A stretch of DNA of 64,000 nt, from assembly GCF_018350175.1 (NCBI RefSeq), contig NC_058382.1:15128001-15192000 (forward strand), given 5' to 3'. How positions within the stretch are numbered: position 1 is the first letter of the stretch; every line of letters starts with the position of its first letter. Origin of the DNA: Felis catus. Its lineage: Eukaryota. The notes under the pieces were generated by a model. That model worked only from the letters and a program-made list of their open reading frames with translations, was not told the DNA's origin and made no database searches. Below are positions 26,506 through 48,959 of the stretch, one piece after another. Both the position numbers and the translations under genes were made by a program.

Positions 26506-26991
26506 TCTTTAAGATGACGGCAACTCCACATATGTTTGAATGTAACTCCATGGAAAATTAGAGCCACACCACCTAAGTAGGCCACTCCTGGATCCTAATT
26601 TCAGAAACCGTGCAAGATCATACAAATGTTATGGTGCTGACTTACGGAGTAACAGAAGTCTGCTTCTGTTTCTGTGTCTCCCTCTCTCTCTGCCCCTCAC
26701 CCATTAGCACTCTCTCTCTGCCTTTCAAAAAAAAAAATGAATAAATGTTAAAAAAAAATTTTTTTAATAATAAAAAAAAAGAAAGCAAGATCCAAGTATA
26801 TGCTGTCTATAAAAGACACACTTTTGGGGAGCCTGGGTGGCTCAGTCAGTTGGGCGGCTGACTTCAGCTCAGGTCGTGATCTCTCCGTTTGTGAGTTCAA
26901 GCCCCACATTGGGCTCTGTGCTGACAGTTCAGAGCCTGGAGCCTGCTTCGGATTCTGTGTCTCCCTCTCTCCCTGCTCCTCCCCAGTTGCA

Positions 26992-27033
<42 letters not shown>

Positions 27034-27289
27034 AATAAACAAACATTAAAAATGATTAAAAGAAAAGACACACTTTAGATCTAAGACACCCAGTAAGTTG
27101 AATGTAAATGGATGAGAAAAGATATATCATGCCAAGAGTAACCATGATAGAGTAAGGACAGAATTACTCTCAGACACAATAGATGTAAAAGAAATTGTAC
27201 TAGAGACAAAGAGGGACATTTTGTAGTGATAAAAGGGACAATCCATCAGATACACACACACACACACACACGTACATATATAGTAAATA

Positions 27290-27335
<46 letters not shown>

Positions 27336-30300
27336 CAAGTAAAAATGTATACTAACAAGAGATCCCAAAATGCATGACAAATAGACTATTGAACAGCTAT
27401 TAAGTTGTAGTACTCCTCTTTTAGCAATTGATAGAACAACCAGACAGAAATTAGTAAGGATTGAGAATACATAGACACTATCAATCACTTTACCTAACAG
27501 CTAACACTCCGCTTACCAAAAGCAGGACACACACACACTATTTTCAAGCACGCTTGGAAATTCTCCAGAGTAGACCATAAAATAAGGCCATAAAATAAGT
27601 CGTAATAAATGTATGCAAATTGAAATCATAGAAAGTATGTTCTCTGACCTTAATGGAATTGCGTTGGAAGCCAACCATAAAGAGAAATTTAGGAAATCTC
27701 CAAGTATGTAGAAATTAAACACCCTTCTAGGGGCGCCTGGGTGGCTCAGTTGGTTGAGCGTCCGACTTCAGCTCGAGTCGTGATCTCACAGTTCATGAGT
27801 TTGAGCCCCCACATCAGGCTCTCTGTTGTCAGCACAGAGCCCTATTTGGATCCTCTGTCCCCCTCTCTCTCTGCTCCTCCCTGCTCACTCTCTATCTCAC
27901 AAAAATAATAAACATTAAGTAAAAACACCCTTCCAGATGACCCATGTGTCAAAGAAGAAATCAAGAGCTGGGTCGCCTGGTGGGCTCATTCCATAGAGTG
28001 TGACTCTTGATCTCGAGGTCATGAGTTTGAACCCCATGTTGGGTGTAGACATGACTTAAAAATAAAATCTTAATGGGGCGCCTGGGTGGCTCAAGTCGGT
28101 TGAGTGACTTCGTTCATGGGTCGTTGAGTGATCTTACCGTTCATGGGTTCAAGTCCTGTGTTGGGGTCTGTGCTGACAGCGCGGGGCCTGAAGCCTGCTT
28201 CGGATTCTGTGTCTCCTCTCTCTCTCCCCCTCCCTCACTCTTGCTCTGTCTCTCAAAAATAAATAAATGTTGGGGCGCCTGGGTGGCGCAGTCGGTTAAG
28301 CGTCCAACTTCAGCCAGGTCACGATCTCGCGGTCCGTGGGTTCGAGCCCCGTGTCAGGCTCTGGGCTGATGGCTCAGAGCCTGGAGCCTGTTTCCGATTC
28401 TGTGTCTCCCTCTCTCTCTGCCCCTCCCCCGTTCATGCTGTCTCTCTCTGTCCCCAAAATAAATAAAAAAAGGTTGAAAAAAAAAGTTTAAAAAAAAATA
28501 AATGTTAAAAAATAAAAATAAAAATCTTTAAAAAAAGAAGAAATCAATAGTTAACATTTTTTTGAATCCTTACTATGTGTTAGTCACTGGGCTAACCATT
28601 CTTTCAATCCTTAAAACCACCCACTGAGGCAGAGATTCTTATTTATCTTTTTAAAAGTTTATTTATTTATTAAGATTATTTTATTATTTTTTTATGCCTG
28701 CTTATTTTTGAGAAACAGAGACATAGCATGAGCAGGGGAGGAGCAGAGAGAGGGAGACACAGAATCAGAAGCAGGCTCCAGGCTCTGAGCTGTCAGCACA
28801 GAGCCTGACGCTGGGTTTGAACTCAAGGACTCTGAGATCATGACCTGAGCCGAAGTTGAACACTCAACCAACCGAGCCACCCAGGTGCCCCAAGCCTCCA
28901 ACTCTTGATCTCAGTTCAGGTCAAGATCTCAGGGTTTGGGAGTTCCAGTCCCAGTCCGCCCCCCCACCCCCCCCCCCACCCCGGGGCTCCATGCTGACAG
29001 CCAGGATCCTGCTTGGGATTCTTCCCCTCTCTCTGCTCCTCCCCCACTCGTGCTCTCTCTGTTTCTGTCTCTCTCTGTCTCTCTCAAAATAAATAAATAA
29101 ACTTAAAAAAAATGGAGTAGACCCTTTTCTGTCTGGCATACAGAATTAAACTAATTTTTTTTCCTACCACCCATTCCAGAGTATGTTGACAACATGTTTC
29201 CTGATCACCTTCAAATACTCTATTGTGTATTTTCCACAAACAAGAACATTCTCCTGATTGTCCACTCTAAGGCAAAGGTGAAAATCAAGAAATTAACAGG
29301 GATAGATCACTACCATCTAATCCAGGGACCCCGACCACCTTTTTTTGTTTGTTTGTTTATTTATTTTTGAGAGATAGAGCACGAACCAGGGAGGGCCAGA
29401 CAGAGAGGGAGACACAGAATCGGAAGCAAGCGGGCTGCAAGCTCCAGGCTCTGAGCAGTCAGGACAGAGCTTGAGGGGGGTGGGGAAGAATTGAACTCCC
29501 TGAACTGCGAGATCATGACCTGAGCCCAAGTCAGACACTTAACTACCTGAGCCACTGAGGCACCCCTCGGACCACCTTTGACAGTTATGCCAAAAACTAC
29601 AATTTCTCTCCACTGCTATCTGTGGAAATTTACACCCTACCCATGTGTTAGCTCTAGAAACACTTTTGTTAATTACAACTACTTGACATTGGCAAATAAA
29701 AATGAATGCTAAGTCATTCAACAATGAGCCCTGGGGAACTAGGGGAATTCAGACTTTCTCGGGTCCACCACTGCAAGAGGGGACCCTTCCTTACACCGCC
29801 CACCCAGAGAGACAGTCTCAAGGGCTCGGTATGGGGAGGGTGGTTTCCCCGGAAGGATCTCAGGGGCAGAAATGAGTCCTGAAAAGGCTCAGACCCTACG
29901 CTCTGCTTCCTGTCAGGTCAGGAACGGTCCTCTGCTTGTGAGGACTGCAAAGCCCACAGCGGCCCAGGGAAAGGGAGGTCTGTCACCTCTGGGGCGGGCT
30001 CCAAGCGTGGGATAGCCCGCCTGGGGCGTGGGTGGGGATTGTCCCGGGCTCTGGATCCTAGCCTATCATGGGACGCTGGAGCGCTGCCACCCGGCGGGGC
30101 TCCTTCCCACGGCTGAGGGAGACGGGTCCTGCAGGGTGGCGACTCAGGCCAAGACCAGAAATGCACCGACTGCGGGCGACTCCCTGGTTGTCACTCGGGC
30201 AGGGCCAGGGGCACAGGTAGAAAGAAAGGTGGGAAGGGGGCTCGTGAGCGCGCAGAGACCCAGAGGACTGGTCGCGGTGTCCCCCTGCCTCCCCACCGCG

Positions 30301-31009
30301 CCACCCCCCCCCCCACTCGTCCCCACGCAACTCCTCCGGGAGGTGCCGGTTCAGTGCGCGTCTGCCCCGGGGACACGGGCGGGAGCCTGTCCCCACTCCG
30401 CCACAGCTGGGAGGCCGGCGACGCCCCATCCCCTGCCCCGCCCACCCCGCCCAGACCCGCTCCCCGCACCCCAGGCGGGAGAGCCGGGGCAGAGGTGAGA
30501 CGAGGCGGGTAGCGGCGCGGGAGCCCCCACAGGCCCAGGCACCGTCTCCACCATTTCGGGTCTCAGGGACCAGACGTGCGGGGACTCGTTCGCCCGTTTG
30601 CAGACGCAGCGGCTCGGAGCTCCGATGTTCCGCAGAGGGGGCACCGAGGGGAGCTTGAGCCCGCTCCAAATCCCCATCAGCTGTCCCCACCGCACGACCG
30701 CCGGGCCGGGCCGCCCGGAAAAGCGCCGCTGGACACCAGCCAACGCCCACCCCCACCCGATCGCGACCCTCCGGAGGCGTCCCGGCCACAGACTGCCCTC
30801 CGAGGCCGCGGGGCCCCACTCCCGCCCCCGCCGCGGCATCGCTGTGACCCTTCGTCAGCGTCTTCCCCGCTCTGAACCTGCTCTCCGCGTCCAGACGAAG
30901 GACACCCGGGCACAGACGGGGCGCACACACGCGGACTGAAACTTTATTTGCCCTGCCGCGCCCGGGACCCCGGACCCCCGACCCCCGACCCCGCCGCCCG
31001 CCCGGAGGC

Positions 31010-33156
31010 TCAGAAGATCTTCACCGACTGCAGCTGCAGGTCCCCGCCCACCTCCAGGAGGCGCACGCGCGCCGGCGGGATCCGGTAGCGGAAGTGGTGG
31101 TACTCCGAGTCGCCGACCACCGCCTGCGGGGCGGAGGGGGGCGGGGCGTCAGGGGCCGCGGGGCCCCGAGTCCCCGGGCGCGAGATGGGGCCCCGATGGC
31201 CGTACCTCTTGTCGTGGTCCTCACCTGGGCCACCTGTCTGGCGCGGACGCGCGCTTAAGGCGGTGGCTGTTACGGCCCCGCCGGCGGCGTCCACGGCCTC
31301 CCTCCGGCCGTTCGCACTGAACGTGGGGAAGGGCCTGGGTGCTGGACGCCGCGCAGCGACCACTCCCCGCGGACACGCGCGTCCCGGCCCAGTCGCCCGG
31401 CCATCCTGGCCCCTGCTCCGGGACACCTAGCGCTTCCCGCTAGGGGCCACCCACCCTCTGGGCGCTGGGTCCTTGCCGCCCGGTCCCTGCCCCGGCCACA
31501 CCCCTGCCTTCGGGCACACGTGGGGTTGCGCCAGGGGAAGAAGAAGAGGGACGGACCGAACGTGGGCCCCGCCTTGGCCGGGCCTTTGCTCCCCACCTCC
31601 ACCAAGAGCCTTCCTGGCTTGCCTGGACTGCAGGCGGGGCGGGGGTCTGGGCGCCCGCGCCTGTGGGTGGCAGGGACTCACCTTGAACCCTTCTTCGGTG
31701 GCGATGAGGAGCACGTCGAAGGGCTGCCCATGCTGGAAGGGAATGCCTGAGCCGCGCTCCTCCCGGCCCCAGGTGCCCTGCTCCAGGCTGTTGAAGACCA
31801 CCGTGGACTCGTCCAGCCGCGGGTTGAAATGGAGGGCAGCCTCCCCGCCAGGCCCCTCGCCGCACAGCAGGTTCACATAGAACCTGGTAGTGGGGGCAGG
31901 GAGGAGAGGATAAAGGGCACAGGCCAAGAAGCACCCTACCAAGATCAGGGACCAATGGTCAGGACTCCCCACCGCCAGGCCGTTCCAATTCATAGGCACC
32001 GGAGAACGTCCCACGCCACACGGGGAAGGGTTGTGGGCTGCTGGCCAGGGACCCGCCCTCCAGGGCGTCCAAAAGCTCCAGGGACCCTGGACCCGCATGC
32101 ACCTAGCGAGGGTCACTATGCTACGGCCCCGGGTGCCCCTCATTTCCAGAGCCTCTAACGTTTGCCGTGGAGTCACGATGCCGATGGCCAGGGTGCTCTC
32201 TGTTCCTAGGGCATCCCCCTTGCCAGAGGGCTGGGCACAGCACCACGGGCCCGCACGTGTGCAGGCACCGCAGATTCCCAGCAAGCCTGCCCTTCCCAGA
32301 CCCGGAAGTCCTACGACCGACCGCTTCGGCCTCCCAGGTGCCCAGGGCACCTCCAGGCCGCGGGACTTCTTTCCAGGGTTCCTGGCATTCAGACTGGGAG
32401 CCACAGGACTCTAGATGGGAGCCCTGGGATGGCTGTGGAAGCCCCAGATCCCTAGGGAGACGTAGGGACCCCAGCTACACAGTCACGGGACAAGTAAGTG
32501 AAGACTTCAGATTCCAGAAGGTCAGCGATGGCCCGGGGAGTCTAAGACCCTGTGGGCCAAGGTGGCTCTGGTGCCCTCGTGTCTGGGCTGCAAGAAGTCC
32601 GAGCCAGCTGAGCCTGGACACCTCCCAGCCTTACCTCTGGGGCCTGGGGTCTCACCTGCCGGCCTTTTCCGGGACGACGCCGCGAATCCTCATCACGGTG
32701 CCCACCCGGATGCCCTCGGGCAGCGACGTCTTGTGGGGCACGTTCTGCGGGTTCAGCGGCGGGGAGTCCCAGGGAACCGGGGGCGCGGACGAGAGACACA
32801 CGTGGGTCGGCCCCAGGCAGAAAGCATCCGGGACCCAGATCGGCAGAATCCGTGAGAAGAAAAGGCCCAGAGACCAAGGAGAGAGAGCCAGAGCCAGACC
32901 AAGAGTGGGAGAGCCAACCACGAGGGATCAACGGAGAAAGGGAGACTCCAGAGAGGCAGATGGGAGCGTGGGGATGGGTTGGGTCCACCCGGGAGCCACA
33001 GCCCAGACCCTTGGTAGCACACCCTGGCACCCACTTTGTCCTTCCCGGCGGGACACCTCAGCCAGGCCCAGCCCCTCCCTGAGTCCGGTGCCGCCTTGGG
33101 TCCAAGCCCCCCGGGCCCCGACGCCCCCCGAAGGCACTCACAGAGCTTCCCGCCAT
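31010..33156 (-). CDS. LGALS7B: Galectin-7, LGALS4-proximal copy (syntenic position of human LGALS7B), 4 exons, 139 aa
   Basis: Minus-strand exons 33156-33142 (MAGSS), 32744-32656 (NVPHKTSLPEGIRVGTVMRIRGVVPEKAGR), 31883-31682 (FYVNLLCGE..ALHFNPRLDESTVVFNS..WGREERG..), 31123-31010 (AVVGDSEYHHFRYRIPPARVRLLEVGGDLQLQSVKIF*). PolyA signal (TTTATT on +) at 30943-30948. The B suffix is assigned by synteny only. Confidence 0.95.
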
Positions 33157-35696
33157 GGCTGGGACGCTGGGGCGACAGGCGTGGCGGTGGGTATGGCTGC
33201 TGGGACCTTAAGTAGAAGCAGAAGCAGGGCGTGGCGGCCCCGCTGACTCACCCCCAGCCATTTCCACACCCGCCGCCCACACCTGGCACAGACCCTGGCC
33301 CTGGGGCCACCCAGCGGCCCAGCACCTTCTTGCTGGGCCCGGGACTTCCCTCCACTCACTGAGGGTTCCCAGTCCACCGCCCGCCCCCTCCGTTGAGCTA
33401 AGAATCCTGAAGACAGTTAAGGACGAACCGCCAAGGACAGAGGGCACCCAGGGGGCCACCATCCATCCCGGCCATGTCCCTGCCGCTTGGCACAGGGGAA
33501 AGGGTCTTTGCCCATCTTATCTTGGACATCTGGAGCCCCGAGAGGCCCACCCGGGGCTGGAAGCGGGGGCCCCTCTCTCCCAGGCTGGGACCTGCGCCTT
33601 GGGCTGAGGACGCGTCTACCGAAATTCCAGCTCACGCTCCCTCGCGTGACGGTGACCCCGGCAAGGACAACACTGTGCCCGCGGGGCTCCGGGGGGCAGG
33701 ACGTGTGCCTGATGAGCCGCGTCTCCCGGGGTCTAGAGCAGCGGCTGGTACACGGTCTGGGCTCCTCAAGTGCGCCTGAAAGACGAATAAGGAATGACAC
33801 CAGCGCCTGGTCTGAGGTCCTGGGCGCCTGGCACACACAGGACCTCCCTGAGCGCTCACCGCTAGCCGAGCGAGCGGGGAAGGGGATCACTCGCCCCCAC
33901 TTCACAGACCAGGAAACCGAGGCTCAGACACGGGAGGCCGTTTGCCCGAAGGCGCACGGCCGGGCAATCCCTGGGTGAGTGTCTCTCTGCCCTTCTTCAA
34001 CTCTGGCGGGTTCCGCCTTGTTTCTTCTGTCCCTGGGAATGCCCTGGTGTCTCTCCCTGGCCCTCTGGCTCCGACTCTCCCTCCCTCCCGGGTGGCCCTG
34101 TCTGCTTCTCTTCCTCAACGCCATGTCTCCTTCCTCCTCCCAGAATGGCTCCCGCTCTCCCAGCCAGGTTCGGGTCAGGGGAGGCAGAGGGGGGCCGTCC
34201 TGGGACCCAGCCGCGCCCTGACCCGGGAGCAGCGACGTGGGATCCTCCACTCAGGCCCACAGCCCAAGATGCCATAGTCCAAGATTCCAGAAGAAGAATC
34301 CAGGATGGGAAGGGTGGGGTCAGAGGGAGAATGCTGAAAGAAGGTTCTGGAAGGTAGGGAAGAGGCAGGGTGGGGCAGCCACCTGAGCAGAACCCCCTCC
34401 CAGCAGCCCAGCAGGCCTCCTGTCCACCCCCACCACCCCCTCCCAGCCTCCACTCCTGCCCCCCACCCCCCACCCTCCAGGGGGAAGAGGCCTGGGGCAG
34501 AGACCAGAATGGAAACTCTGGGTGGAGACAACCAGACTCAGAACCTGATCTGCCACCTGACTGCCCCCCAGGCCTCCCAGACTCTCTCCATCCCCACACC
34601 ACGTGAGGCACCCCGGGGGTGGCAGGGGGCGGCGCAGTTTGGGGGCCAGGACCTCAGACAGGGAGGCCGGACAGCTGCGAGGTGGGTGGGGGTGTCTGCA
34701 AGCACCCAGTGTTCAGAGGAGAAGAGGGAGGCAGAGAGTGGGGCACCCTCTCAGCCAAGGTCCCACAGCAGGGAAGCAGCCCGGGGATGGGCGGGGGGGG
34801 GGGAGCGGGGGGGCCGGGGGGGGGGCAGGGCTGGTCACCAGGACTTGCGGTAGAGAGGACATGGGGCCTGAGGCCGGGGCACCCACACCCGGGAGCCGGC
34901 GTCCCGAATCGAACCGTGGGCTCCACCTGTCTCGGATCTCAGGTTCGGGGTGTCCCCCTCGGCCGCCTCGCTCTCCACGTGCTCTTGGGGCCCAACGACT
35001 CGTCCTTCCCCAGATGTCTTCTTTGGGGCTGGATGTGTCTTCACACGCTGCCAACCTGCAAGTCCAAACTCGACCGTGACTTCACCGTGGGCCCAAGTGT
35101 CAGCGGTCGATCTGTTATCAGTTGATGGCGGGCTCGTTTCTCAGAAGCCAGGCACGCGCGCGCACGTGCCGGAGCCCCATTCTCTGGTGTGGATCGTCTC
35201 TGCGTCGGTTCTGGAAAAATGCTTTCAGGAGCACTGTTTCCATTCCCAGTGAGTCGTGACCGTGCCTGTGTCTCAGTCCTCGTGCCTTTTCCCGAGCGAT
35301 GCCTCGCCTTCCGAAGACGCGCAGGTTGTAACAGAATGAGGGTGGGATTCCAGAAACGTCCGGACCTGAGCAACCCCCACCCCCACCGAGTTTCCCCGAG
35401 CCCCAGAGACAGCCAGCCCCCCTCCGCCCGCCCTGCCCGGGACAGCGCTGCCAGTCTGGGCGTCCCGTGGCCACCGTGTCATGTGTCCCGGGAGTGGAGA
35501 GGGGTGGCCAGCAGGCTGAGTCTGCGGACCTTCGCCCTCCTGCAGGGAACAACTCTGGTGACTGAAAAGTCACCCCGTGTACCCACCGTGCTTGTGGGCG
35601 TTGAAACCCCCAGGCCCTCTGCCAGGGTCAGCGTGTTGGGGACTTTGGGCCGGTTTTGTACACGGTGAACATCAGTCCGGGGGCCGCTTTGGTTTT

Positions 35697-35812
35697 GTTT
35701 TGTTTTGTGGAAAGATTTTGGTTTTGAAGTGATCTCCGCGCCCGGCGTGGGGCTGGCACTCCCCACCCAGAGATCCGGGGTCCCAAGCTTCACGGAGCCA
35801 GCCAGGCGCCCC
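35697..35812 (-). mobile_element. Short older-type CanSINE in the left arm (identical inverted copy at 41150-41265)
   Basis: Reverse complement reads GGGGCGCCTGGCTGGCTC...AGCCCCACG...GAGATCACTT..AAAATCTTT with a CAAAGCGGCCCC target-site duplication. Confidence 0.8.
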
Positions 35813-37295
35813 GCGGGGCCGCTTTGCTTTTGTAAGTGAACCTTCCAAGGAGGAGAAAGACACTGCTCAAATCTCTTTCTTAAGCGGTGGATCCACTGGT
35901 AACTGACACTTCTATTTCTGGATAGAATACATTTCCCCAACCCCATCAGGCGGAGGGAAGCATTTTCTGTCCTGCTTGCTTCCATTGATAAACTGAGGTC
36001 GTTAACGTCTCTTACGTATTTTCAGCCGCATGTGGGATTTACCGTGTTTTTTGTTTTGAAGTTTATTTATTTATTTTGAGAGATGGAGAAAGAGAGAGGG
36101 AGGCATGGAGAGAAAGGGGAACACAGCGGATCCCAAGCACTGTCCGTGAGGAGCTGGGTGTGGGGCTGGAACCCATGAACCTTGAGATCGTGACCTGAGC
36201 CGAAATCCAGAGTTGGGTGCTTAACCGACTGAGCCAGCCAGGTGCCCCCCACCATGTATTAAATTTGAAGTGTTTCCCATCGTCCACTCAGTTCTTCCAA
36301 GTAATAAGGGATCGTGGTCCGTTTCCACGCCTGAGGTGGGAGTCCAGTGACCTGTTCTTTCACCTTTCCTTCTTTCCTCCCCTCCCTCCCTTCACCTCCC
36401 CTCCCCTCCCCTCCCTTCCCTTTGCTCTCCTTCCTTGGCTGAGGGATTGGGCCATCAGGTGGGGGGACAGGTGCTGCCTCTGGGTGGGGGGAGGGAAGGG
36501 GCAGGATAGCAGCTGGCCGAGGGGAGGGGACGCTGTTCTGCTGTCATGTCAGACGGAGTGAGTGAGGAGGGCGCTCAGAAGGGCGTGGTCCTCAGGACCT
36601 AGGGTGGGGGTGAGGGGAGAGGGGCAGCTGGACCTTGGGAACCCAGCCCCAGCAGAGGAGTCGGAGGTGTCTGTGCTGGGGAGGAAAGGGTCCCTGCGGG
36701 AGTGACTGCAGGGTGGGTTTCCACCACGGAAGGCGAGTCTCTTCTGTGACATTCAGAGGGAAGAGTTCTAGTGTGGAAAGGGGAAAATGACCATGAACCT
36801 GACTGGCGGTATTTCATGAGAGGTTTTGGAGGGTGGGGGTGTGGGGGGTTTGCGTCTCCTTAAAATCTTTTTTATTATGGTAAAATATAAAAATATGGGT
36901 GACTCAGTCGGTTGAGCGTCAGACACTTGGTTTCTGCTCAGGTCATATCTAGGGTCATGGGATCGAGCCTCGGTGCTGAGCACGGAGCCCGCTTGAGATG
37001 TTCTCTGTCTCTCCCTCTGCCCTCTCCCCTGCTTGTGCGCTCCCTCTAAAGTAAATAAAATAAAATATATACGTGTGGTGTCTAAATGGGTTGTCTCTCG
37101 ATCAGATGGGGGTCCCCAAACGTGGGTGAGGATCACGTGGAAGCCAGTGGCATGGAGGCGAAAGGATTCACCTGAGGCGGAACAAAGGCGACGGAAGTTT
37201 ATTGAACAGGCCCCAAGGGAGCAGGGGTCAGGACAGCAGAGGAGAGGCTGTCTGCAAGGAGGCAGTGGGCAGGGGGCGTATTTAAAGCGAGAAGG

Positions 37296-37514
37296 GGGGT
37301 GCCTGGGTGGCGCAGTCGGTTAAGCGTCCGACTTCAGCCAGGTCACGATCTCGTGGTCCGTGGGTTCGAGCCCCGCGTCAGGCTCTGGGCTGATGGCTCG
37401 GAGCCTGGAGCCTGCTTCCGATTCTGTGTCTCCCTCTCTCTCTGCCCCTCCCCCGTTCATGCTGTGTCTCTCTCTGTCCCAAAAATAAATAAAAACGTTG
37501 AAAAAAAAATAAAT
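37296..37514 (+). mobile_element. Young SINEC_Fc inserted into an LTR-like fragment (about 37090-37560) in the palindrome spacer
   Basis: Perfect TSD AAAGCGAGAAGG at 37284-37295 and 37515-37526. Host sequence has minus-strand AATAAA (TTTATT near 37198) and TATA-like motifs. Confidence 0.85.
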
Positions 37515-38116
37515 AAAGCGAGAAGGTGAGGAGGTGTGGGGACGTGTGAATTTTCCCTTTTTTTAATTAAAAAAATTGTTTTATGTTTATATTTTGAGAG
37601 AGAGAGAGAGAGAGAGAGAACACGCGGGTGCTTGCACATTAGCACGGAGGGGCAGAGAAAGAGGGAGACACAGAATCCCAAGCAGGCTCCAGGCTCTGAG
37701 CTGCCAGCACAGAGCCCTATGCAGGGCTCGAACCCACAAACGAACGGTGAGATCATGACCTGAGCCCAAACCAAGAGTCGGGCGCTGAACCCCCCTCCCG
37801 CCCATGCCGGGCGCCCCACCATGTTAACCATTTTTCCCGTGTCCAGTTCAGTGGCACAAAATACATTCACACTGTCGCGTAGCCGTCCCCACCATCCGTC
37901 TCCAGAACTCTCTTCATCTCGCAAACCTGTAACTGGACCCGCTAAACACTAACTGCCCGGCTCCCCGGCCCCCGCCCCCCACTCCACCCCCCCTCCTACT
38001 TTGTGTCTCTATGAATTTGACCAGGGGCCAGGTAGGAATGCAGCCTTTGCCCGTCTGCGGCTGGTGAGTATTCTACACCCAAAGCGAAAGAAATACGGGT
38101 GTAGAAACGTGTTTGT

Positions 38117-38590
38117 TGAAGGGTGCGAAACGTGCCACCCCCAAATATGCCCTTTTAGCATCAGGATTATTTTGAACTAATAGCCCTTGCGAAACAGCGG
38201 AAGAAGGGCTTTCTACCCTCCCATTTGCTGCCTGAAAACAGGAGATAAAAACTCTCACGTGACAGATACCTACCCTCTGCCAGTTCCTATTCTCCTGAGT
38301 GACATTCTCATCCTAAGTTGAGACCCAGAGAATTCGATGCAAACAGGCCCTGTGAAAGTGATTCCAAGCGTCCCGCGTAACCGCTGGGTTACTTCTCCAC
38401 AGTTGCCTCTGTCCTTCAACTTAATATAAAAGCACGTGCGCTCAGCCATCCCCTCGAGGCTTCATTTCCTGCTGAGGGCTCTAGGGTGACGTAAAACTTA
38501 GGTAACCTGTCCGCCTGATACGTCAGTTCAAGTCTCGGGCCCAGCCGGAACACCCCTTGGAGGGCAGAGGTCCCGTGTTGCCTCCCCTCC
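38117..38590 (+). mobile_element. MER34-like ERV1 solo LTR
   Basis: TGAAGG...TGCCACCCCCAAATATGCC...GGATTATTTTGAACT 5' end as recalled for MER34; TATAAAA; 3' end GCCTCCCCT. Confidence 0.65.
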
Positions 38591-38752
38591 GATGGATAGA
38601 TGCGTGTCTGCGTTCATACATCCCCTACCTTGTCCCCCTGACAAGGCCTGGGAGCGGAGCCCGTGCCCAGATCTTGGTTCCTAAGGACTGCACCTTTCTC
38701 TGCGAAAGAAATGTGTAGAAAAGGCTGTCTCCAAGGCTCAAATGGGAAGGCA

Positions 38753-39463
38753 TGAGGTGTGCCAGGGATGAAGTTTTGGGGTGACGGGGGGCTCGTGGGG
38801 TCCCGAGCCGACAGCCAAGAAAGAATTCTCGAAGAGGTCTTTGGTGCAAAAAGGTGATTTTATTAAAGCACGGGGACAGGACCCGTGGGCCGCTGCAGAT
38901 GGGGGGGGGGTGACTGTTTTACGGGGTGGGGGGCGGGTAGATAAAGTCAAGAGAGTTTCCAAAGAGGCTTTCACATGCTTACAGTCTTACTGGAGGCCTA
39001 CCTATTGTCAATCTAAGGCTATTTTTCCCTCTAGCAAAGCATTAACATTAAGACAGTAGGAAGTTCAGGGTCCCCTGGGTGGCTCAGTTGGTTAAGCAGC
39101 CAGGCTCAAGTCGTGATCTCCGTTCGTGAGTTCAAGCCCTGCACTGGGCTCTATGCTGACAGCTTAGAGCCTGGAGCCTGCTTTGGATTCTGTGTCTTCC
39201 TCCCCCATTCCCCCCCCCTCAAAAATAAACATTAAAAAAAAAAAACAAAAAAGGATTGTAAGGAATTCCTGGACTTTAGGCAGGATGGGATGGCCTGTTT
39301 CTTATAAACTGGTGGAGACTCTTCCCAGTTTAACCATTTGTTTTTTTTGTCCTTTCCTGTTTTTGGGTAGTGGAGAGTGTGCAAGGAATATCACGCATAT
39401 CCCCCCCCGGGGGGGGTGCTGTTAACCGGCACCTTGCCCTCAGCTTGCCCCACACCCCCTCAT
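38753..39463 (-). mobile_element. Carnivore ERV-type solo LTR with a nested SINE (about 39068-39250)
   Basis: TG...CA termini (TGAGG...CCTCA), TTTATT near 38858 (polyA signal on -). Family not determinable by eye. Confidence 0.5.
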
Positions 39464-39557
39464 CGCCTGGAACAGCTTCCTGGGTCGGGAAAGGAGGAAG
39501 CGTTCACGGCACCGGGGCTCCTTGGACAGCCCCATGAGTCCATGGGTCCATACTGAT

Positions 39558-39922
39558 GTGGTCTTACTCTGTCGGGGCTGCTATAACAAAAATCCCACCC
39601 ACCGGCGGCTTACAAACATCAAGAATTTATTTCTCGTGGTTCTGGAGGCTGGGAAGTCCACGATCACGGCGCCAGCATATCGGGTGTCTGGTGTGAACCT
39701 GATTCCTGGTTCATAGACGGATCCTTCTTGCTCTGTCCTCACATGGCTGCAGGGACAAAGGAGCTCTCTGGGGTCCCTTTAGAAGAACACCAACCCCTAC
39801 TCACCAGGGCTCGGCCTTCGTGACCTCATGTTCTCCCAAAGGCCCCATCTCCAAATACCATTCCCCTGGGGACGCGGTTTCACTAAGGGAATCTGGGGGC
39901 CACAAACATTCAGTCTATAGCA
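39558..39922 (-). mobile_element. MLT1A-type MaLR LTR
   Basis: GGGCTGCTATAACAAAA...AATTTATTTCTC..GTTCTGGAGGCTGGGAAGTCCA...CAAACATTCAGTCTATAGCA, typical reverse MLT1A/B. Confidence 0.8.
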
Positions 39923-41149
39923 GATGTGCAGGAGGAAACGATAAGAAATGATCAAAGTTTGCTGAAGAACGTGAGCTTTGCAAAATCTCCAGGCGCTTCC
40001 CACAAAATGCTTACTGATGACACAGGACAAATGGGTAACTTTACGGCGGGGAGGGGAAGCCGGGGAGGTTCCGCTAGTCACGTGATCCAAGACCACTCAC
40101 CAGCCACGGGACACGGGAGGGGCCAGGCAGCTGGAGGAGGCAGGCGCTGTCGCTTCTGTGGCTCTTCAGCCAACAGTGCCTAACCTGCAGCTGGCCATGA
40201 GGGGACATCCGCCTCCAAGCTTCTCAAGTGTCAAGGTCTTGAAACACAAAGGAAGACTGAGGAGCCATTTCAAACTGAAGGCCAAGGAACCCAAGAAAGC
40301 CTGCCGCCAAATCAAAGCCACGTTCTGATTTCTCCTCTTCCCCCCACCCCCCACCCTGGTCCTGAGGACCACCCTCTCCAAGCACCCTCCTCACCCATTC
40401 CCTCTGACACCATAGTGGAATCGCACCCCCTCATCCCCCTAGGGCCACCCAGATCCCCACCCACAAGAAGCAGTGTGGTCCCACCTGAAAGACTCTAACA
40501 GCCAATCCTTCAGGTAGGCAAAGGGAGAGGAAGGGAGGCAGGGAAGGGGAAGAGAGGAAGGGAGGGGAGGAGAGAAGAGAGGAGAGGAGTGGAGGGAAAG
40601 AGAGGGAAAGGGAGAGCAGGGGAAGGGAGGGGAATGGAAATGAGGAGAGTGGCCAGAGGGGATGGAGGGAAGGGAAGGAAAGGGGAGGGGAGGGGAGGGG
40701 AGAAGAAGGTAGGGGAGGGAGGGGGGAGGAGAAGGAAAGTGGGGGAAGAGAGGAGGGGAAGGTAGGGAGAGAAGGAAGGAGGGAGGGAGGGAGGAGGCAG
40801 AGGTGGAAGAGGAGGGAGCAAGTCCCTGCACTGCTAAATCCGGTGTGAAGTGAAAAATTACTTATGGCTTAGAAGAATTTATGGACAATGGAAACACTTA
40901 AAACGCAACACAAGCTAAAGTCCCACATGCGGCTGAAAATACGTAAGAGAGTTTAACGACCTCAGTTTATCAATGGAAGCAAGCAGGACAGAAAACGCTT
41001 CCCTCCGCCTGATGGGGTTGGGGAAATGTATTCTATCCAGAAATAGAAGTGTCAGTTACCAGTGGATCCACCGCTTAAGAAAGAGTCAGATTTGAGCAGT
41101 GTCTTTCTCCTCCTTGGAAGGTTCACTTACAAAAGCAAAGCGGCCCCGC

Positions 41150-41265
41150 GGGGCGCCTGGCTGGCTCCGTGAAGCTTGGGACCCCGGATCTCTGGGTGGG
41201 GAGTGCCAGCCCCACGCCGGGCGCGGAGATCACTTCAAAACCAAAATCTTTCCACAAAACAAAAC
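41150..41265 (+). mobile_element. Short older-type CanSINE in the right arm
   Basis: TSD AAAA(G/C)CAAAGCGGCCCC at 41131-41147 and 41266-41282. Confidence 0.8.
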
Positions 41266-43679
41266 AAAACCAAAGCGGCCCCCGGGCTGATGTTCACCGT
41301 GTACAAAACCGGCCCAAAGTCCCCAACACGCTGACCCTGGCAGAGGGCCTGGGGGTTTCAACGCCCACAAGCACGGTGGGTACACGGGGTGACTTTTCAG
41401 TCACCAGAGTTGTTCCCTGCAGGAGGGCGAAGGTCCGCAGACTCAGCCTGCTGGCCACCCCTCTCCACTCCCGGGACACATGACACGGTGGCCACGGGAC
41501 GCCCAGACTGGCAGCGCTGTCCCGGGCAGGGCGGGCGGAGGGGGGCTGGCTGTCTCTGGGGCTCGGGGAAACTCGGTGGGGGTGGGGGTTGCTCAGGTCC
41601 GGACGTTTCTGGAATCCCACCCTCATTCTGTTACAACCTGCGCGTCTTCGGAAGGCGAGGCATCGCTCGGGAAAAGGCACGAGGACTGAGACACAGGCAC
41701 GGTCACGACTCACTGGGAATGGAAACAGTGCTCCTGAAAGCATTTTTCCAGAACCGACGCAGAGACGATCCACACCAGAGAATGGGGCTCCGGCACGTGC
41801 GCGCGCGTGCCTGGCTTCTGAGAAACGAGCCCGCCATCAACTGACAACAGATCGACCGCTGACACTTGGGCCCACGGCGAAGTCACGGTCGAGTTTGGAC
41901 TTGCAGGTTGGCAGCGTGTGAAGACACATCCAGCCCCAAAGAAGACATCTGGGGAAGGACGAGTCGTTGGGCCCCAAGAGCACGTGGAGAGCGAGGCGGC
42001 CGAGGGGGACACCCCGAACCTGAGATCCGAGACAGGTGGAGCCCACGGTTCGATTCGGGACGCCGGCTCCCGGGTGTGGGTGCCCCGGCCTCAGGCCCCA
42101 TGTCCTCTCTACCGCAAGTCCTGGTGACCAGCCCTGCCCCCCCCCCGGCCCCCCCGCTCCCCCCCCCCCCGCCCATCCCCGGGCTGCTTCCCTGCTGTGG
42201 GACCTTGGCTGAGAGGGTGCCCCACTCTCTGCCTCCCTCTTCTCCTCTGAACACTGGGTGCTTGCAGACACCCCCACCCACCTCGCAGCTGTCCGGCCTC
42301 CCTGTCTGAGGTCCTGGCCCCCAAACTGCGCCGCCCCCTGCCACCCCCGGGGTGCCTCACGTGGTGTGGGGATGGAGAGAGTCTGGGAGGCCTGGGGGGC
42401 AGTCAGGTGGCAGATCAGGTTCTGAGTCTGGTTGTCTCCACCCAGAGTTTCCATTCTGGTCTCTGCCCCAGGCCTCTTCCCCCTGGAGGGTGGGGGGTGG
42501 GGGGCAGGAGTGGAGGCTGGGAGGGGGTGGTGGGGGTGGACAGGAGGCCTGCTGGGCTGCTGGGAGGGGGTTCTGCTCAGGTGGCTGCCCCACCCTGCCT
42601 CTTCCCTACCTTCCAGAACCTTCTTTCAGCATTCTCCCTCTGACCCCACCCTTCCCATCCTGGATTCTTCTTCTGGAATCTTGGACTATGGCATCTTGGG
42701 CTGTGGGCCTGAGTGGAGGATCCCACGTCGCTGCTCCCGGGTCAGGGCGCGGCTGGGTCCCAGGACGGCCCCCCTCTGCCTCCCCTGACCCGAACCTGGC
42801 TGGGAGAGCGGGAGCCATTCTGGGAGGAGGAAGGAGACATGGCGTTGAGGAAGAGAAGCAGACAGGGCCACCCGGGAGGGAGGGAGAGTCGGAGCCAGAG
42901 GGCCAGGGAGAGACACCAGGGCATTCCCAGGGACAGAAGAAACAAGGCGGAACCCGCCAGAGTTGAAGAAGGGCAGAGAGACACTCACCCAGGGATTGCC
43001 CGGCCGTGCGCCTTCGGGCAAACGGCCTCCCGTGTCTGAGCCTCGGTTTCCTGGTCTGTGAAGTGGGGGCGAGTGATCCCCTTCCCCGCTCGCTCGGCTA
43101 GCGGTGAGCGCTCAGGGAGGTCCTGTGTGTGCCAGGCGCCCAGGACCTCAGACCAGGCGCTGGTGTCATTCCTTATTCGTCTTTCAGGCGCACTTGAGGA
43201 GCCCAGACCGTGTACCAGCCGCTGCTCTAGGCCCCGGGAGACGCGGCTCATCAGGCACACGTCCTGCCCCCCGGAGCCCCGCGGGCACAGTGTTGTCCTT
43301 GCCGGGGTCACCGTCACGCGAGGGAGCGTGAGCTGGAATTTCGGTAGACGCGTCCTCAGCCCAAGGCGCAGGTCCCAGCCTGGGAGAGAGGGGCCCCCGC
43401 TTCCAGCCCCGGGTGGGCCTCTCGGGGCTCCAGATGTCCAAGATAAGATGGGCAAAGACCCTTTCCCCTGTGCCAAGCGGCAGGGACATGGCCGGGATGG
43501 ATGGTGGCCCCCTGGGTGCCCTCTGTCCTTGGCGGTTCGTCCTTAACTGTCTTCAGGATTCTTAGCTCAACGGAGGGGGCGGGCGGTGGACTGGGAACCC
43601 TCAGTGAGTGGAGGGAAGTCCCGGGCCCAGCAAGAAGGTGCTGGGCCGCTGGGTGGCCCCAGGGCCAGGGTCTGTGCCA

Positions 43680-43760
43680 GGTGTGGGCGGCGGGTGTGGA
43701 AATGGCTGGGGGTGAGTCAGCGGGGCCGCCACGCCCTGCTTCTGCTTCTACTTAAGGTCC
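43680..43760 (+). promoter_or_regulatory. Galectin-7 promoter (KLF CACCC boxes, AP-1, TATA-like); mirrored at about 33203-33283 on the - strand
   Basis: GGGTGTGG at 43692-43699, TGAGTCA at 43713-43719, TACTTAAGG at 43749-43757, 50-115 nt upstream of the ATG; identical inverted copy in the left arm. Confidence 0.6.
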
Positions 43761-43806
43761 CAGCAGCCATACCCACCGCCACGCCTGTCGCCCCAGCGTC
43801 CCAGCC

Positions 43807-45951
43807 ATGGCGGGAAGCTCTGTGAGTGCCTTCGGGGGGCGTCGGGGCCCGGGGGGCTTGGACCCAAGGCGGCACCAGACTCAGGGAGGGGCTGGGCCTG
43901 GCTGAGGTGTCCCGCCGGGAAGGACAAAGTGGGTGCCAGGGTGTGCTACCAAGGGTCTGGGCTGTGGCTCCCGGGTGGACCCAACCCATCCCCACGCTCC
44001 CATCTGCCTCTCTGGAGTCTCCCTTTCTCCGTTGATCCCTCGTGGTTGGCTCTCCCACTCTTGGTCTGGCTCTGGCTCTCTCTCCTTGGTCTCTGGGCCT
44101 TTTCTTCTCACGGATTCTGCCGATCTGGGTCCCGGATGCTTTCTGCCTGGGGCCGACCCACGTGTGTCTCTCGTCCGCGCCCCCGGTTCCCTGGGACTCC
44201 CCGCCGCTGAACCCGCAGAACGTGCCCCACAAGACGTCGCTGCCCGAGGGCATCCGGGTGGGCACCGTGATGAGGATTCGCGGCGTCGTCCCGGAAAAGG
44301 CCGGCAGGTGAGACCCCAGGCCCCAGAGGTAAGGCTGGGAGGTGTCCAGGCTCAGCTGGCTCGGACTTCTTGCAGCCCAGACACGAGGGCACCAGAGCCA
44401 CCTTGGCCCACAGGGTCTTAGACTCCCCGGGCCATCGCTGACCTTCTGGAATCTGAAGTCTTCACTTACTTGTCCCGTGACTGTGTAGCTGGGGTCCCTA
44501 CGTCTCCCTAGGGATCTGGGGCTTCCACAGCCATCCCAGGGCTCCCATCTAGAGTCCTGTGGCTCCCAGTCTGAATGCCAGGAACCCTGGAAAGAAGTCC
44601 CGCGGCCTGGAGGTGCCCTGGGCACCTGGGAGGCCGAAGCGGTCGGTCGTAGGACTTCCGGGTCTGGGAAGGGCAGGCTTGCTGGGAATCTGCGGTGCCT
44701 GCACACGTGCGGGCCCGTGGTGCTGTGCCCAGCCCTCTGGCAAGGGGGATGCCCTAGGAACAGAGAGCACCCTGGCCATCGGCATCGTGACTCCACGGCA
44801 AACGTTAGAGGCTCTGGAAATGAGGGGCACCCGGGGCCGTAGCATAGTGACCCTCGCTAGGTGCATGCGGGTCCAGGGTCCCTGGAGCTTTTGGACGCCC
44901 TGGAGGGCGGGTCCCTGGCCAGCAGCCCACAACCCTTCCCCGTGTGGCGTGGGACGTTCTCCGGTGCCTATGAATTGGAACGGCCTGGCGGTGGGGAGTC
45001 CTGACCATTGGTCCCTGATCTTGGTAGGGTGCTTCTTGGCCTGTGCCCTTTATCCTCTCCTCCCTGCCCCCACTACCAGGTTCTATGTGAACCTGCTGTG
45101 CGGCGAGGGGCCTGGCGGGGAGGCTGCCCTCCATTTCAACCCGCGGCTGGACGAGTCCACGGTGGTCTTCAACAGCCTGGAGCAGGGCACCTGGGGCCGG
45201 GAGGAGCGCGGCTCAGGCATTCCCTTCCAGCATGGGCAGCCCTTCGACGTGCTCCTCATCGCCACCGAAGAAGGGTTCAAGGTGAGTCCCTGCCACCCAC
45301 AGGCGCGGGCGCCCAGACCCCCGCCCCGCCTGCAGTCCAGGCAAGCCAGGAAGGCTCTTGGTGGAGGTGGGGAGCAAAGGCCCGGCCAAGGCGGGGCCCA
45401 CGTTCGGTCCGTCCCTCTTCTTCTTCCCCTGGCGCAACCCCACGTGTGCCCGAAGGCAGGGGTGTGGCCGGGGCAGGGACCGGGCGGCAAGGACCCAGCG
45501 CCCAGAGGGTGGGTGGCCCCTAGCGGGAAGCGCTAGGTGTCCCGGAGCAGGGGCCAGGATGGCCGGGCGACTGGGCCGGGACGCGCGTGTCCGCGGGGAG
45601 TGGTCGCTGCGCGGCGTCCAGCACCCAGGCCCTTCCCCACGTTCAGTGCGAGCGGCCGGAGGGAGGCCGTGGACGCCGCCGGCGGGGCCGTAACAGCCAC
45701 CGCCTTAAGCGCGCGTCCGCGCCAGACAGGTGGCCCAGGTGAGGACCACGACAAGAGGTACGGCCATCGGGGCCCCATCTCGCGCCCGGGGACTCGGGGC
45801 CCCGCGGCCCCTGACGCCCCGCCCCCTCGGCCCGCAGGCGGTGGTCGGCGACTCGGAGTACCACCACTTCCGCTACCGGATCCCGCCGGCGCGCGTGCGC
45901 CTCCTGGAGGTGGGCGGGGACCTGCAGCTGCAGTCGGTGAAGATCTTCTGA
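43807..45951 (+). CDS. LGALS7: Galectin-7, CAPN12-proximal copy (syntenic position of human LGALS7), 4 exons, 139 aa
   Basis: Exons 43807-43821, 44219-44307, 45080-45281, 45838-45951 (420 nt). Protein identical to the minus-strand copy; galectin signature H-x-N-P-R...N...W..E.R intact; AATAAA at 46013-46018. Confidence 0.96.
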
Positions 45952-48547
45952 GCCTCCGGGCGGGCGGCGGGGTCGGGGGTCGGGGGTCCGGGGTCCCGGG
46001 CGCGGCAGGGCAAATAAAGTTTCAGTCCGCGTGTGTGCGCCCCGTCTGTGCCCGGGTGTCCTTCGTCTGGACGCGGAGAGCAGGTTCAGAGCGGGGAAGA
46101 CGCTGACGAAGGGTCACAGCGATGCCGCGGCGGGGGCGGGAGTGGGGCCCCGCGGCCTCGGAGGGCAGTCTGTGGCCGGGACGCCTCCGGAGGGTCGCGA
46201 TCGGGTGGGGGTGGGCGTTGGCTGGTGTCCAGCGGCGCTTTTCCGGGCGGCCCGGCCCGGCGGTCGTGCGGTGGGGACAGCTGATGGGGATTTGGAGCGG
46301 GCTCAAGCTCCCCTCGGTGCCCCCTCTGCGGAACATCGGAGCTCCGAGCCGCTGCGTCTGCAAACGGGCGAACGAGTCCCCGCACGTCTGGTCCCTGAGA
46401 CCCGAAATGGTGGAGACGGTGCCTGGGCCTGTGCGGGCTCCCGCGCCGCTACCCCCCTCCGTCTCACCTCTACCCCGGCTCTCCCGCCTGGAGTGCGGGG
46501 AGCGGGCCTGGGCGGGGTGGGCGGGGCAGCGGATGGGGCGTCGCCGGCCTCCCAGCTGTGGCGGAGTGGGGACAGGCTCCCGCCCGTGTCCCCGGGGCAG
46601 ACGCGCACTGAACCGGCAACTCCTGGAGGAGCTGCGTGGGGACGAGTGGGGGGTGTGGCGCGGTGCGAAGGCAGGGGGACACCACAACCGGGCCTCACGG
46701 GCCCCACATCCACTCTTCTCCACCTGTGCTCACAGATGGCCCCGGGCCCTGGCCCTGCGGTGTGACAACTAGGGTGTCTGAGTAGTGGGCGCTCACGCAG
46801 ACGCCCAGTCAACCCCCACTGCCAGGCGATTTTCTAGTCGAAGGTGACTACTCATCACTTAATGGCTATGGGTGGAGGGAAGTCGTGACTCCTCGATGCG
46901 ACAGTCGCCAGGCTGGGTCCGTTATTATGAGATGGAGACCCGGCGCGCTGGCTGGTCCCCCACTGCGGCTGGGGCTCGGGTCCGGGTCTGGGCAAGTCTG
47001 GAGCCACGCCCCTGGAGGGTTTTGCCCGTAGTTTCCCGCCCGGCTTCCTTGCGAGGTACACGTCGCCTCCTTGCGGCCTCTGTCGAAGTTGCCACGCTGG
47101 CAGTGGGTACTGGAGGTAGGATTACCCTGGTTTCGTCTGAGGATGCAAAACTTTGTGGGGCTTCCAAATCTGGGCGAATTCGAGTCCTTTCAGCATCTGA
47201 ACTTTTTCTGTACTTGAGATCTTCCACCTGCAGCAGCCCCTCTTCCTCCTGGGTCCTTCTTTGTATATTTTGGGTGGTTCTTCCTCTCCCAGTGGGAGAC
47301 CTGAGAATATCTACAGCCATTGGTACACCAGGGCTGTCTGTTAAATGAACTAATTTTGATTTTATTTGTCTGTGTCGTGTAATTTTGGAACGTTTAAGAA
47401 TTTTTTGAGGGAGCCTGGGTGGCTCCATGGCTTAAACGAGGGACTTTGGGACTTCGGCTCAGTTCATGATCTCCTGGTTCCTGGGTTAAAGCCCCGCATC
47501 ACGCTCTATGCTGACAGCTCAGAGCCTGGAGCTGCTTCGGATTCTGTGTCTCCCTCTCTCTCTGCCCCTCTCCCGCTCCCGCTCTGTCTCTCTCTCAAAA
47601 ATAAACGAGGATTAAAATTAAAAAAAAAAAAAAAACAGAAAGAAAAAAAGGAAATTTGGGTACCAACCCGTATGGGACAAATTTCAAAAAGTATAGTGAA
47701 AAAGTAAGACATTGTTGGCACGACTGGTAAACTAGGTTGGATGATGGTGATTCATCCGTGTTAATTTCCTGATTTTCACTTTTTTTTTTAATGTTTATTT
47801 ATTTCTCAGAGAGAGAGAGAGACAGAAAATGAGCAGGGGAGGGGCAGAGAGAAAGAGAGAGACAGAGGGAGACAATCTGAAACAGGCTCCAGGCTCTGGG
47901 CTGCCAGCACAAATTCTGACACCGGGCTTGAACTTGGGAATGGCGAGATCATGACCTAGGCCGAAGTCGGGCGCTCAACCAACTGAGCCACCCAGGCCCC
48001 CCCCCCGCCCCCCCGCGGTTTTCATTTCCATCTTGCCTTGTGCATAGTGGAGAATGTTCGTGTCTATACAAAGTATCATTACATATTATAGTATTTGGAG
48101 GTGAAAACGCAGCATGTTGGCAATCTATTCTCAGGAAAAAATTGAGGTTTGTGCTGTACTTAGAAACTTTTGCCATTTCAGGGGCACCTGGGTGGCTCAG
48201 TCAGTTAAGCGTCCGACTTCGGCCAGGTCATGATCTCACGGTTCGTGAGTTCAAGCCCCGCGTCAGGCTCTGTGCTGGCAGCTCAGAGCCTGGAGCCTGT
48301 TTTGGATTCTGTGTCTCCCTCTCTCTCTCTGCCCCTCCCCAGCTTGTACTCTTTCTCTCTCTCTCAAAAATAAAAAGAAAAGAAAATAATTTTTTTTAAA
48401 GTTTGCCAGTTCAAATATGTGTATATATTTAATATATAGACCATTTGATTTAATTTGTGTGTATGTTGTGAAGTAGGGGCCCAACTTCATTCTTCTGCAC
48501 ATGGATTCCCAGTTGAAAAGACTATTCTTTCATCATTGTATTGTCTT

Positions 48548-48959
48548 TTTTTTTTTTTCCAACGTTTATTCATTTTTGGGACAGAGAGAGACAGAGCATG
48601 AACAGGCGAGGGGCAGAGAGAGAGGGAGACACAGAATCGGAAACAGGCTCCAGGCTCCGAGCCATCAGCCCAGAGCCCCACACGGGGCTCGAACTCACGG
48701 ACCGCGAGATCGTGACCTGGCTGAAGTCGGACGCTTAACCGACTGCGCCACCCAGGCGCCCCATATTTATTTTTGAGACAGAGAGAGACAGAGCATGAAC
48801 AGGGGAGGGCCAGAGAGAGAGGGAGACACAGAATCGGAAACAGGCTCCAGGCTCCGAGCCATCAGCCCAGAGCCCGACGCGGAGCTCGAACTCACGGACC
48901 GCGAGATCATGACCTGGCCGAAGTCGGACGCTTAACCCACTGCACCACCCAGGCGCCCC
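48548..48959 (-). mobile_element. Two tandem SINEC_Fc copies enclosed by one TSD pair
   Basis: TCATCATTGTATTGTCTT at 48530-48547 and 48960-48977. Confidence 0.85.

Follow-up and report, generated by a model that had tools for sequence, protein, structure and literature searches.

Palindromes of the primate X and Y chromosomes consist of mirror-image arms that are more than 99% identical, surround a unique spacer, carry genes and contain paralogs that resemble each other more closely than their orthologs (PMC8327919, PMC3723533). For palindromes of deep conservation, 'few parallels' are said to exist (PMC8327919). The FLNA/EMD inverted repeats are present in many mammals, have been proposed to be more than 100 million years (My) old and are homogenised within species, their origin being ambiguous (PMC8327919, PMC3961182, citing Caceres et al. 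2007). Here we describe the galectin-7 locus of Felis catus, contained in a stretch of 64 kb (the window; assembly GCF_018350175.1, contig NC_058382.1, positions 15,128,001 to 15,192,000 of the forward strand; positions given below are counted from its first letter). Two galectin-7 genes lie in the arms of an inverted repeat, whose core is 99.8% identical between the arms, whereas the flanks of the same duplication differ at about one third of their sites. We suggest that the duplication is very old and that its core is probably kept alike by gene conversion.

The closest described counterpart is the human pair. Galectin-7, a gene of stratified epithelia, is present on human chromosome 19 in two copies of opposite direction that encode an identical protein, and two copies are also given for cow and dog (PMC5751359, PMC8715898). 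In the cat window, tblastn and protein searches revealed the order LGALS4, head-to-head galectin-7 pair, calpain, as the earlier note had stated, and by this synteny the locus is autosomal. The two-copy statement for human, cow and dog reportedly goes back to Kaltner et al. 2013. We take the calpain to be CAPN12, by synteny, and the left galectin-7 copy, which adjoins LGALS4, to be the positional counterpart of human LGALS7B.

Inverted repeats of the segmental duplication (SD) type have been reported at chr19:38,769,331-38,775,278 and 38,786,884-38,793,390 (5.9 and 6.5 kb) as HsInv1120, which was typed with long reads (PMC13629690). Every typed sample (54 people) and CHM13 were in orientation O2 and hg38 in O1, and the region was not polymorphic; at the repeats, hg38 also has an insertion of 480 bp and, reciprocally, a deletion of 650 bp (PMC13629690). 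The hg38 orientation is either a reference error or a rare inverted allele. Since the source table names no gene, HsInv1120 is linked here to LGALS7 by coordinates and is presumably the same locus. Human and cat then share head-to-head copies of identical protein beside LGALS4 and repeats of similar length (5.5-5.8 kb in cat), but the spacer is 11.6 kb in human and 4.9 kb in cat. The available parts of the accounts of LGALS7 and LGALS7B deal with copy-number variation and promoter differences, not with age or conversion, whereas in the cat 2.8 kb of upstream DNA is 99.8% identical between the copies.

The left galectin-7 gene (31010-33156, minus strand) comprises exons 33156-33142, 32744-32656, 31883-31682 and 31123-31010 with a polyA signal at 30943; the right gene (43807-45951, plus strand) comprises exons 43807-43821, 44219-44307, 45080-45281 and 45838-45951 with a polyA signal at 46013. 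Each copy has four exons and GT-AG introns, lacks internal stop codons and encodes 139 amino acids, and the coding sequences are identical at 420/420 nucleotides. From the intact open reading frames, splice sites and polyA signals both are predicted to be functional. Self-BLAST returned one inverted match, 30263-36062 against 46696-40896 (5,807 columns, 99.2%). Within it, the left core arm (30528-36037) extends from 0.4 kb past the polyA signal over the whole gene to about 2.8 kb upstream of the start codon, and the right core arm (40921-46433) is its reverse complement; the arms are 4.85 kb apart. Global alignment of the core gave 11 substitutions in 5,508 ungapped columns (99.8%; Kimura two-parameter distance, K2P, 0.002) and three internal indels. 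The earlier note had put the number of differences at about a dozen, and every one that it listed was recovered: 31311, 33086, 33732, 35084, 35117, 35676, the poly-G length (1 nt, at 34792), the intron-3 acceptor tract (31131-31136) and a 4-nt indel at 35872. The arms differ in addition at 35962 and 36006-36007. Introns and the 2.8 kb of upstream DNA are as similar between the arms as the exons (99.8%), and the longest identical runs measure 1,774 and 1,060 nt. About half of the core is upstream DNA, which contradicts the claim that near-identity is limited to the gene and promoter; an extension of 0.4 kb past the polyA signal and 2.8 kb upstream suggests limits set by heterologies rather than by the gene and its proximal promoter. 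Differences rise at the inner edge (3/177 columns in the last part of the core versus 8/5331, p=0.004). All seven isolated substitutions (31311, 33086, 33732, 35084, 35117, 35676 and 35962) are transitions, three of them at CpG sites, and in six of the seven the G/C base is on the right arm.

Inverted arms above 99% identity around a spacer agree with the palindrome definition of PMC8327919, but the arms, at 5.5-5.8 kb, fall below its 8 kb cut-off, to which that source admits one exception of 6.5 kb. The likeness to sex-chromosome palindromes drawn in the earlier note thus holds for arm identity but not for arm length or location. The cat pair is autosomal, its gene is epithelial rather than testicular, and neither an X or Y location nor a testis-biased gene family applies, judging by synteny and the human literature. 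It also differs in its inferred age, about 100 My as against at least 25 My for 12 conserved X palindromes (PMC8327919), and in that outer, decayed stretches of the duplicated unit can still be recognised. In the FLNA/EMD system the genes lie in the spacer, orthology of the repeats does not hold in every species and inversion is recurrent; in the cat the genes lie in the arms, so that orthology is anchored and one genome carries its own dating flanks.

The age of the duplication was judged from these flanks. Flank blocks were aligned locally with HOXD70 scores and compared with 300 dinucleotide shuffles each and with same-size windows elsewhere in the 64 kb. Eleven of the 12 blocks, lying on both sides of the core, scored above all 300 shuffles and every same-size window, among them the blocks 29677-30144 and 36268-36623, which are free of short interspersed elements (SINEs). 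The twelfth, 36640-36860 versus 39990-40320, was not significant (63/300 shuffles) and marks the inner end of homology. Flank homology, which the earlier note had proposed, is thereby established on both sides; its 30-mer match between 29751-29780 and 47312-47283 is exactly 23/30, and its mirrored relics further out (29157-29325 and 47732-48141) do align, at 78-81% locally and 70% globally. We call these relics L1-like by resemblance. In a scan with SINEs cut out, colinear mirror matches span 29178/48131 to 36638/40318 and end on both sides, hence the original duplicated unit measured at least 7.5 kb; SINE-cut 150-nt windows over 22400-29140 and 36645-38500 gave no mirror match at a score of 2500.

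One continuous alignment, from which SINEs and a low-complexity tract had been removed (6,855 columns), was partitioned by the Bayesian information criterion (BIC). Three change-points, at left positions 30276, 30528 and 36038, separate tiers of 67.3%, 95.2%, 99.8% and 70.0% identity. The deep outer tier (left, 29157-30177, 65-70%; right, 46779-48141) covers 795 columns with K2P 0.44 and includes, apart from the relics, the copy-specific SINEs 29340-29567 on the left and 47409-47643 and 47761-48004 on the right. The SINEs at 29340 and 47409 were considered as a common mirrored insertion, which was rejected, their insertion sites being different. The deep inner tier (left, 36255-36640, about 70%, resuming beyond a SINE; right, 40316-40912) covers 303 columns with K2P 0.40. 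The two deep tiers are alike (Fisher p=0.43), as expected from one duplication event. A pyrimidine/purine-rich tract is mirrored in the inner flanks (36366-36432 and 40519-40806) and is about four times longer on the right, where its purine-rich form is expanded.

Between the outer tier and the core lies an intermediate tier (left, 30276-30527; right, mirrored at 46434-46683) of 95.2% (237/249, K2P 0.05). Stepwise identity, as the earlier note described it, is therefore statistically firm for this one outer step, and the inner side breaks off abruptly at a SINE; the value of 'roughly 90%' given for the step has to be raised to 94-95% (249/265; 237/249). A further stratum of 'roughly 75%' corresponds to 30178-30275 and 46684-46778, with 62/78 identities (79.5% ungapped) and two 17-nt indels, one a left-only stretch near 30246-30262, where identity collapses, and one a right-only stretch near 46730-46746. 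It differs from the outer flank (Fisher p=0.016), but as no BIC change-point supports it we regard it as weakly separable rather than as a stratum of its own. Likewise, the segment 36545-36620, put at about 75%, is homologous, but reaches 58/71 (82%) locally and belongs to the 70% tier.

Raw identity understates these distances, since the global aligner brings shuffled sequence to 56%, the real block reaching 65% with a far higher score. In simulations with the same aligner, 70% corresponded to a distance (d) of 0.4, 66% to 0.5 and 76% (73.6-78.5) to 0.3, the last lying outside the outer-tier interval of 63.9-70.6. At mammalian rates of 2.2-2.5e-9 per site per year, deep flanks with about 0.4-0.5 substitutions per site would place the last common sequence some 80-115 My ago, whereas a felid or carnivoran origin would predict d of about 0.25 or less. 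The duplication is in any case far older than the core divergence implies (K2P 0.40-0.44 versus 0.002), in accordance with the old age proposed earlier.

Galectin-7 pairs of other mammals were examined at the protein level, in a tree of 81 named galectin-7 proteins and the two window copies on 134 columns, few for 83 rows; unnamed matches were excluded from the alignments. Six pairs, each probably from the same assembly, fall inside their own family or order, while pairs of Canis, Loxodonta and Symphalangus (maybe one locus annotated twice) and of Lipotes (different contigs) were not counted. The lineage groups are well supported: equids 100/99, cetaceans 100/99, ruminants 98/97 and rhinolophoids 98/88. 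Within-pair identity ranges widely, with 133/134 in musk deer, 120/133 in Rhinolophus, 98/117 in Hipposideros, 110/134 in horse, 95/126 in donkey and 106/134 in right whale. Pairs group by family or order and never as two pan-mammalian paralog clades, and all four cross-order paralog clades tried in approximately unbiased (AU) tests were rejected (p-AU 0.0003-0.0005; 79-row set, from which 26 redundant or partial named rows had been dropped). A clade of Rhinolophus copy 2 with Hipposideros copy 2 was not rejected (p-AU 0.57), and the bat pair may have become decoupled before these two families split. The earlier prediction that the core clusters by species thus stands at the level of families and orders, but fails within equids, baleen whales and musk deer.

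The two horse paralogs form a mosaic, with 22/65 differences in residues 6-70 and 2/69 in residues 71-139; horse and donkey copy 2 differ at 1/65 residues in the first part and at 11/69 after it. In horse, the 3' half may thus have been overwritten recently, unless the assembly is chimeric. The model of Przewalski's horse is a chimera of both Equus paralogs (Equus set P0102, P0127, P0132, P0144 and P0135). Residues that distinguish the paralogs are retained among related species and range from a single site (E98D in musk deer) to about 20% (right whale), as seen in P0099/P0148, P0098 and P0146 of baleen whales, P0081/P0108 and P0077/P0150 of bats, and P0034/P0040 and P0036/P0039 of musk deer. 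A comparable case is exon 5 of the red and green opsins, where concerted evolution is long-lived, borders lie at insertions and divergence peaks where selection resists conversion (PMC3924837). By analogy, the horse pair may represent divergence of this kind. Other old tandem pairs under conversion are HBA1/HBA2, HSPA1A/B, SIGLEC11/16 and IFNL2/3. In contrast to the opsins and such pairs, the felid gene has no escaping part, and escape is lineage-specific. Conversion appears to be complete in cats and almost complete in musk deer and humans, whereas in horses, baleen whales and some bats it is partial.

Based on these observations, we consider it probable, at roughly 85%, that the arms, less than 5 kb apart, pair ectopically and that break repair copies tracts between them, mostly without crossover and within limits set by indels, so that two identical functional genes are kept. 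An inverted duplication of at least 7.5 kb including galectin-7 would have arisen approximately in the boreoeutherian or placental ancestor. The arms would still pair ectopically, and double-strand-break repair would copy tracts from arm to arm by non-allelic gene conversion, erasing new differences over the 5.5 kb core; the single orientation among typed humans fits a mostly non-crossover resolution. Double dosage would be the likely benefit of identical copies. Conversion would halt at heterologies that block pairing or branch migration, namely a 205-nt SINE at the inner border and, at the outer one, 17-nt indels, and DNA outside these barriers would have diverged freely since (about 30-35% different), the 250-nt outer margin (5% different) being either rarely converted or cut off more recently. 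In equids, baleen whales and rhinolophoid bats, conversion would have weakened or stopped over part of the gene. With a mutation rate (mu) near 1e-8 per generation, a rough equilibrium (d of about 2 mu/c) would put the conversion rate c near 1e-5 per site per generation, allelic diversity setting a floor to d. This is lower than the 2.2e-4 quoted for Y palindromes (PMC3723533).

The borders themselves agree with such barriers. The inner border lies within ten bases of an old SINE (36047-36251, minus strand, 205 nt), present in the left arm only, with an empty site in the right arm, and homology beyond it is 66-72%; the outer collapse of identity falls at a 17-nt indel, with a second 17-nt indel just beyond. 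Transposable element insertions and large indels are recognised terminators of gene conversion (PMC3924837). The border SINE is at best 79% (median 74%) similar to other copies in the window, where young copies reach 93-97%. The earlier idea of steadily retreating borders is not demonstrated; they coincide with indels that are possibly barriers to an expanding or equilibrium conversion zone. The heterologies may have driven a retreat or may just delimit the zone of today. SINE-like blocks number 0 in each arm and 52 elsewhere, with a P of about 0.003 at the rate of the window but 0.32 at that of neighbouring gene bodies, and exclusion of SINEs from the arms is therefore only suggestive. The arms (30263-36045 and 40896-46696) occupy the two longest SINE-free stretches of the window. 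GC content is 66% in the core (0.90 at third codon positions), 52-58% in the deep tiers, 40-51% in intergenic DNA and 64% in the neighbouring calpain; there is no sharp step at the outer border, as GC climbs gradually before it. The distal upstream core (35151-36036), presumably an old L1 relic by resemblance, has a CpG observed/expected ratio of 0.73, compared with 0.26 and 0.08 in the inner tiers past the border. SINE-free arms, 66% GC and raised CpG fit conversion, yet they are not distinct from neighbouring gene bodies.

Several points weigh against ancient duplication with continuing conversion. The material is one assembly, one haplotype and 64 kb, in which no conversion event itself is observed, and ongoing conversion is what we infer from that haplotype; four N gaps elsewhere, together with identical runs of up to 1,774 nt, mean that the phasing of the arms may be imperfect. 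The gradual rise of GC and the GC-rich calpain leave no clean signal of GC-biased conversion. The divergence of the deep inner tier (70%) is no smaller than that between the border SINE and its relatives, so that this SINE may postdate the decoupling, and as the dating simulation omits CpG decay, the age may be overestimated. In Equus, the baleen whales and Moschus, copies group by paralog, contrary to a simple prediction of core clustering by species. The groups for the AU tests, as well as residue 70 as the cut-point in horse, were chosen after the tree or the data had been seen. Finally, the protein tree by itself fits either one ancient duplication or independent duplications in each order; it is the felid flanks that date the event, and these exclude a young duplication in cats.

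Old flanks together with a near-identical core of only 5.5 kb cannot be explained by selection or by recent duplication. The alternative that survives best, although we regard it as improbable, is an old duplication whose core was overwritten once, recently, by template switching or re-duplication, and has not undergone continuing conversion. The low and fairly even core divergence (0.2%) would agree with it, as would the multi-kilobase single tracts reported in a Y palindrome (PMC3723533). However, a further, earlier event would then be required for the 95% tier, divergence is graded at the inner edge, and the near-identical pairs of musk deer (133/134) and human (PMC5751359) would require parallel recent events. 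Somewhat less credible still is an assembly artefact, a single consensus having been used to fill two diverged copies. The assembly, a scaffolded one, has four N gaps of 131-161 nt (2562-2722, 9032-9166, 49425-49556 and 55720-55850, the last in the first calpain intron), the arms contain identical runs of 1,774 and 1,060 nt, and the hg38 orientation, which no typed sample shows at the corresponding region, suggests a structure that trips assemblies. On the other hand, no N gap occurs between 9167 and 49424, thus none in or near the arms, the 14 differences are spread through the core, and the 95% tier is easily resolved by short reads. Moreover, over exon 3 all seven named felid proteins show 100% identity, and no divergent felid paralog appears among 98 protein matches.

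A recent felid duplication of 5.8 kb, with flank matches due to chance or to independent insertions of related repeats, is very unlikely. Since two unrelated copies from an old repeat family would likewise align at close to 70%, the L1-like block is no proof by itself, and the SINEs at 29340 and 47409 look mirrored although they are not; but the non-SINE flank blocks are significant and colinear on both sides of the arms, and the same pair occurs in other orders, which largely refutes this possibility. Purifying selection alone, for which the conservation of galectin-7 among placentals (72-92% to the felid protein) could be quoted, is refuted, because the copies are 99.8% identical at synonymous sites, in introns and over the 2.8 kb upstream, while orthologous proteins differ by 8-28%.

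A pair converted since the placental root could also bear on sugar specificity. Two groups of mammalian galectin-7 are distinguished by where a glutamate lies in loop L4, a position tied to a preference for type 1 or type 2 N-acetyllactosamine (LacNAc); PMC4422656 notes this split but does not explain it. In one form (motif DTSEV) the glutamate stands at the end of the loop, as human Glu58 does; in the other (DESAV/DESTV) it comes two residues before that. In the window, loop L4 comprises residues 59-63 in exon 3 (about 31802-31816 and its mirror), and both felid copies have Thr at human Glu58 and Glu two residues earlier, the non-human form ('hGal7-like' group of PMC4422656). The alternation is strict in 79 proteins (32 and 47), no protein having both forms or lacking both. 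The human-type form is that of echidna and four marsupials and is therefore ancestral. The other form occurs in sloth but not anteater, in strepsirrhines but not tarsier or anthropoids, in hystricognaths but not other rodents, and in laurasiatherians; horse and donkey have one form per paralog. On a tree built without the loop, five changes are needed. We regard it as doubtful that the second loop arose once on one paralog, was kept by selection against conversion and was then sorted by conversion, giving a switch of sugar specificity. Convergence is likelier: both positions are labile, flanking residues show no visible co-variation, compensatory convergence is plausible, and sorting would require loss of the same form in nearly all laurasiatherians.

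The translated exon 3 contains a single galectin carbohydrate-recognition domain (Pfam PF00337, E 2.5e-20), and its product is 100% identical to the seven named felid galectin-7 proteins. The whole protein matches the last 139 residues of tiger P0013 at 139/139 positions, is 92% identical to dog and 75% to human, and ranges over 72-92% in the placental pairs compared. All sugar-binding residues are kept (H53, N55, R57, N66, W73, E76 and R78), corresponding to human H49, N51, R53, N62, W69, E72 and R74 (PMC5751359). The leopard and Iriomote cat models (P0005 and P0008) have T11M in common, where both window copies have Thr; this may be a recurrent CpG change or an old arm variant. The Sorex araneus model P0004 joins galectin-4-like and galectin-7 segments and is probably an annotation join of neighbouring genes. 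As synteny markers we used an LGALS4 exon (17474-17686, plus strand; best PDB match galectin-4, E 7e-38), whose gene spans about 16-22 kb, and the first coding exon of the calpain (55462-55698, plus strand). The unique spacer (36641-40315, 3.7 kb) contains SINEs and, at 38100-39930, pieces that we take to be LTR (long terminal repeat)-like by resemblance; tblastn found no galectin match in it, and Rfam gave 0 matches over 28-50 kb, spacer included. Two head-to-tail SINE copies of 197 nt, 94% alike, lie at 48567-48959.

The duplication and the mechanism are already known, while the apparent age, the visible margins of decay and the lineage-specific escapes were not found in print. No account of conversion at LGALS7/LGALS7B was found in a literature search whose coverage lacked most subscription journals, and survey supplements may list the locus. 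The best old example of a palindrome, FLNA/EMD, is open to a reading of independent origins. The galectin-7 locus offers an autosomal case, in which orthology is anchored by the arm gene and age is legible from its own flanks. In practice, the orthology of LGALS7 and LGALS7B, variant calls from short reads and dates derived from sequence identity are not reliable at this locus, and the knock-out of a single copy may be buffered. The graded state of conversion across lineages makes the locus a small and cheap natural experiment on what ends concerted evolution, the candidates being border insertions and selection acting on a copy that diverges.

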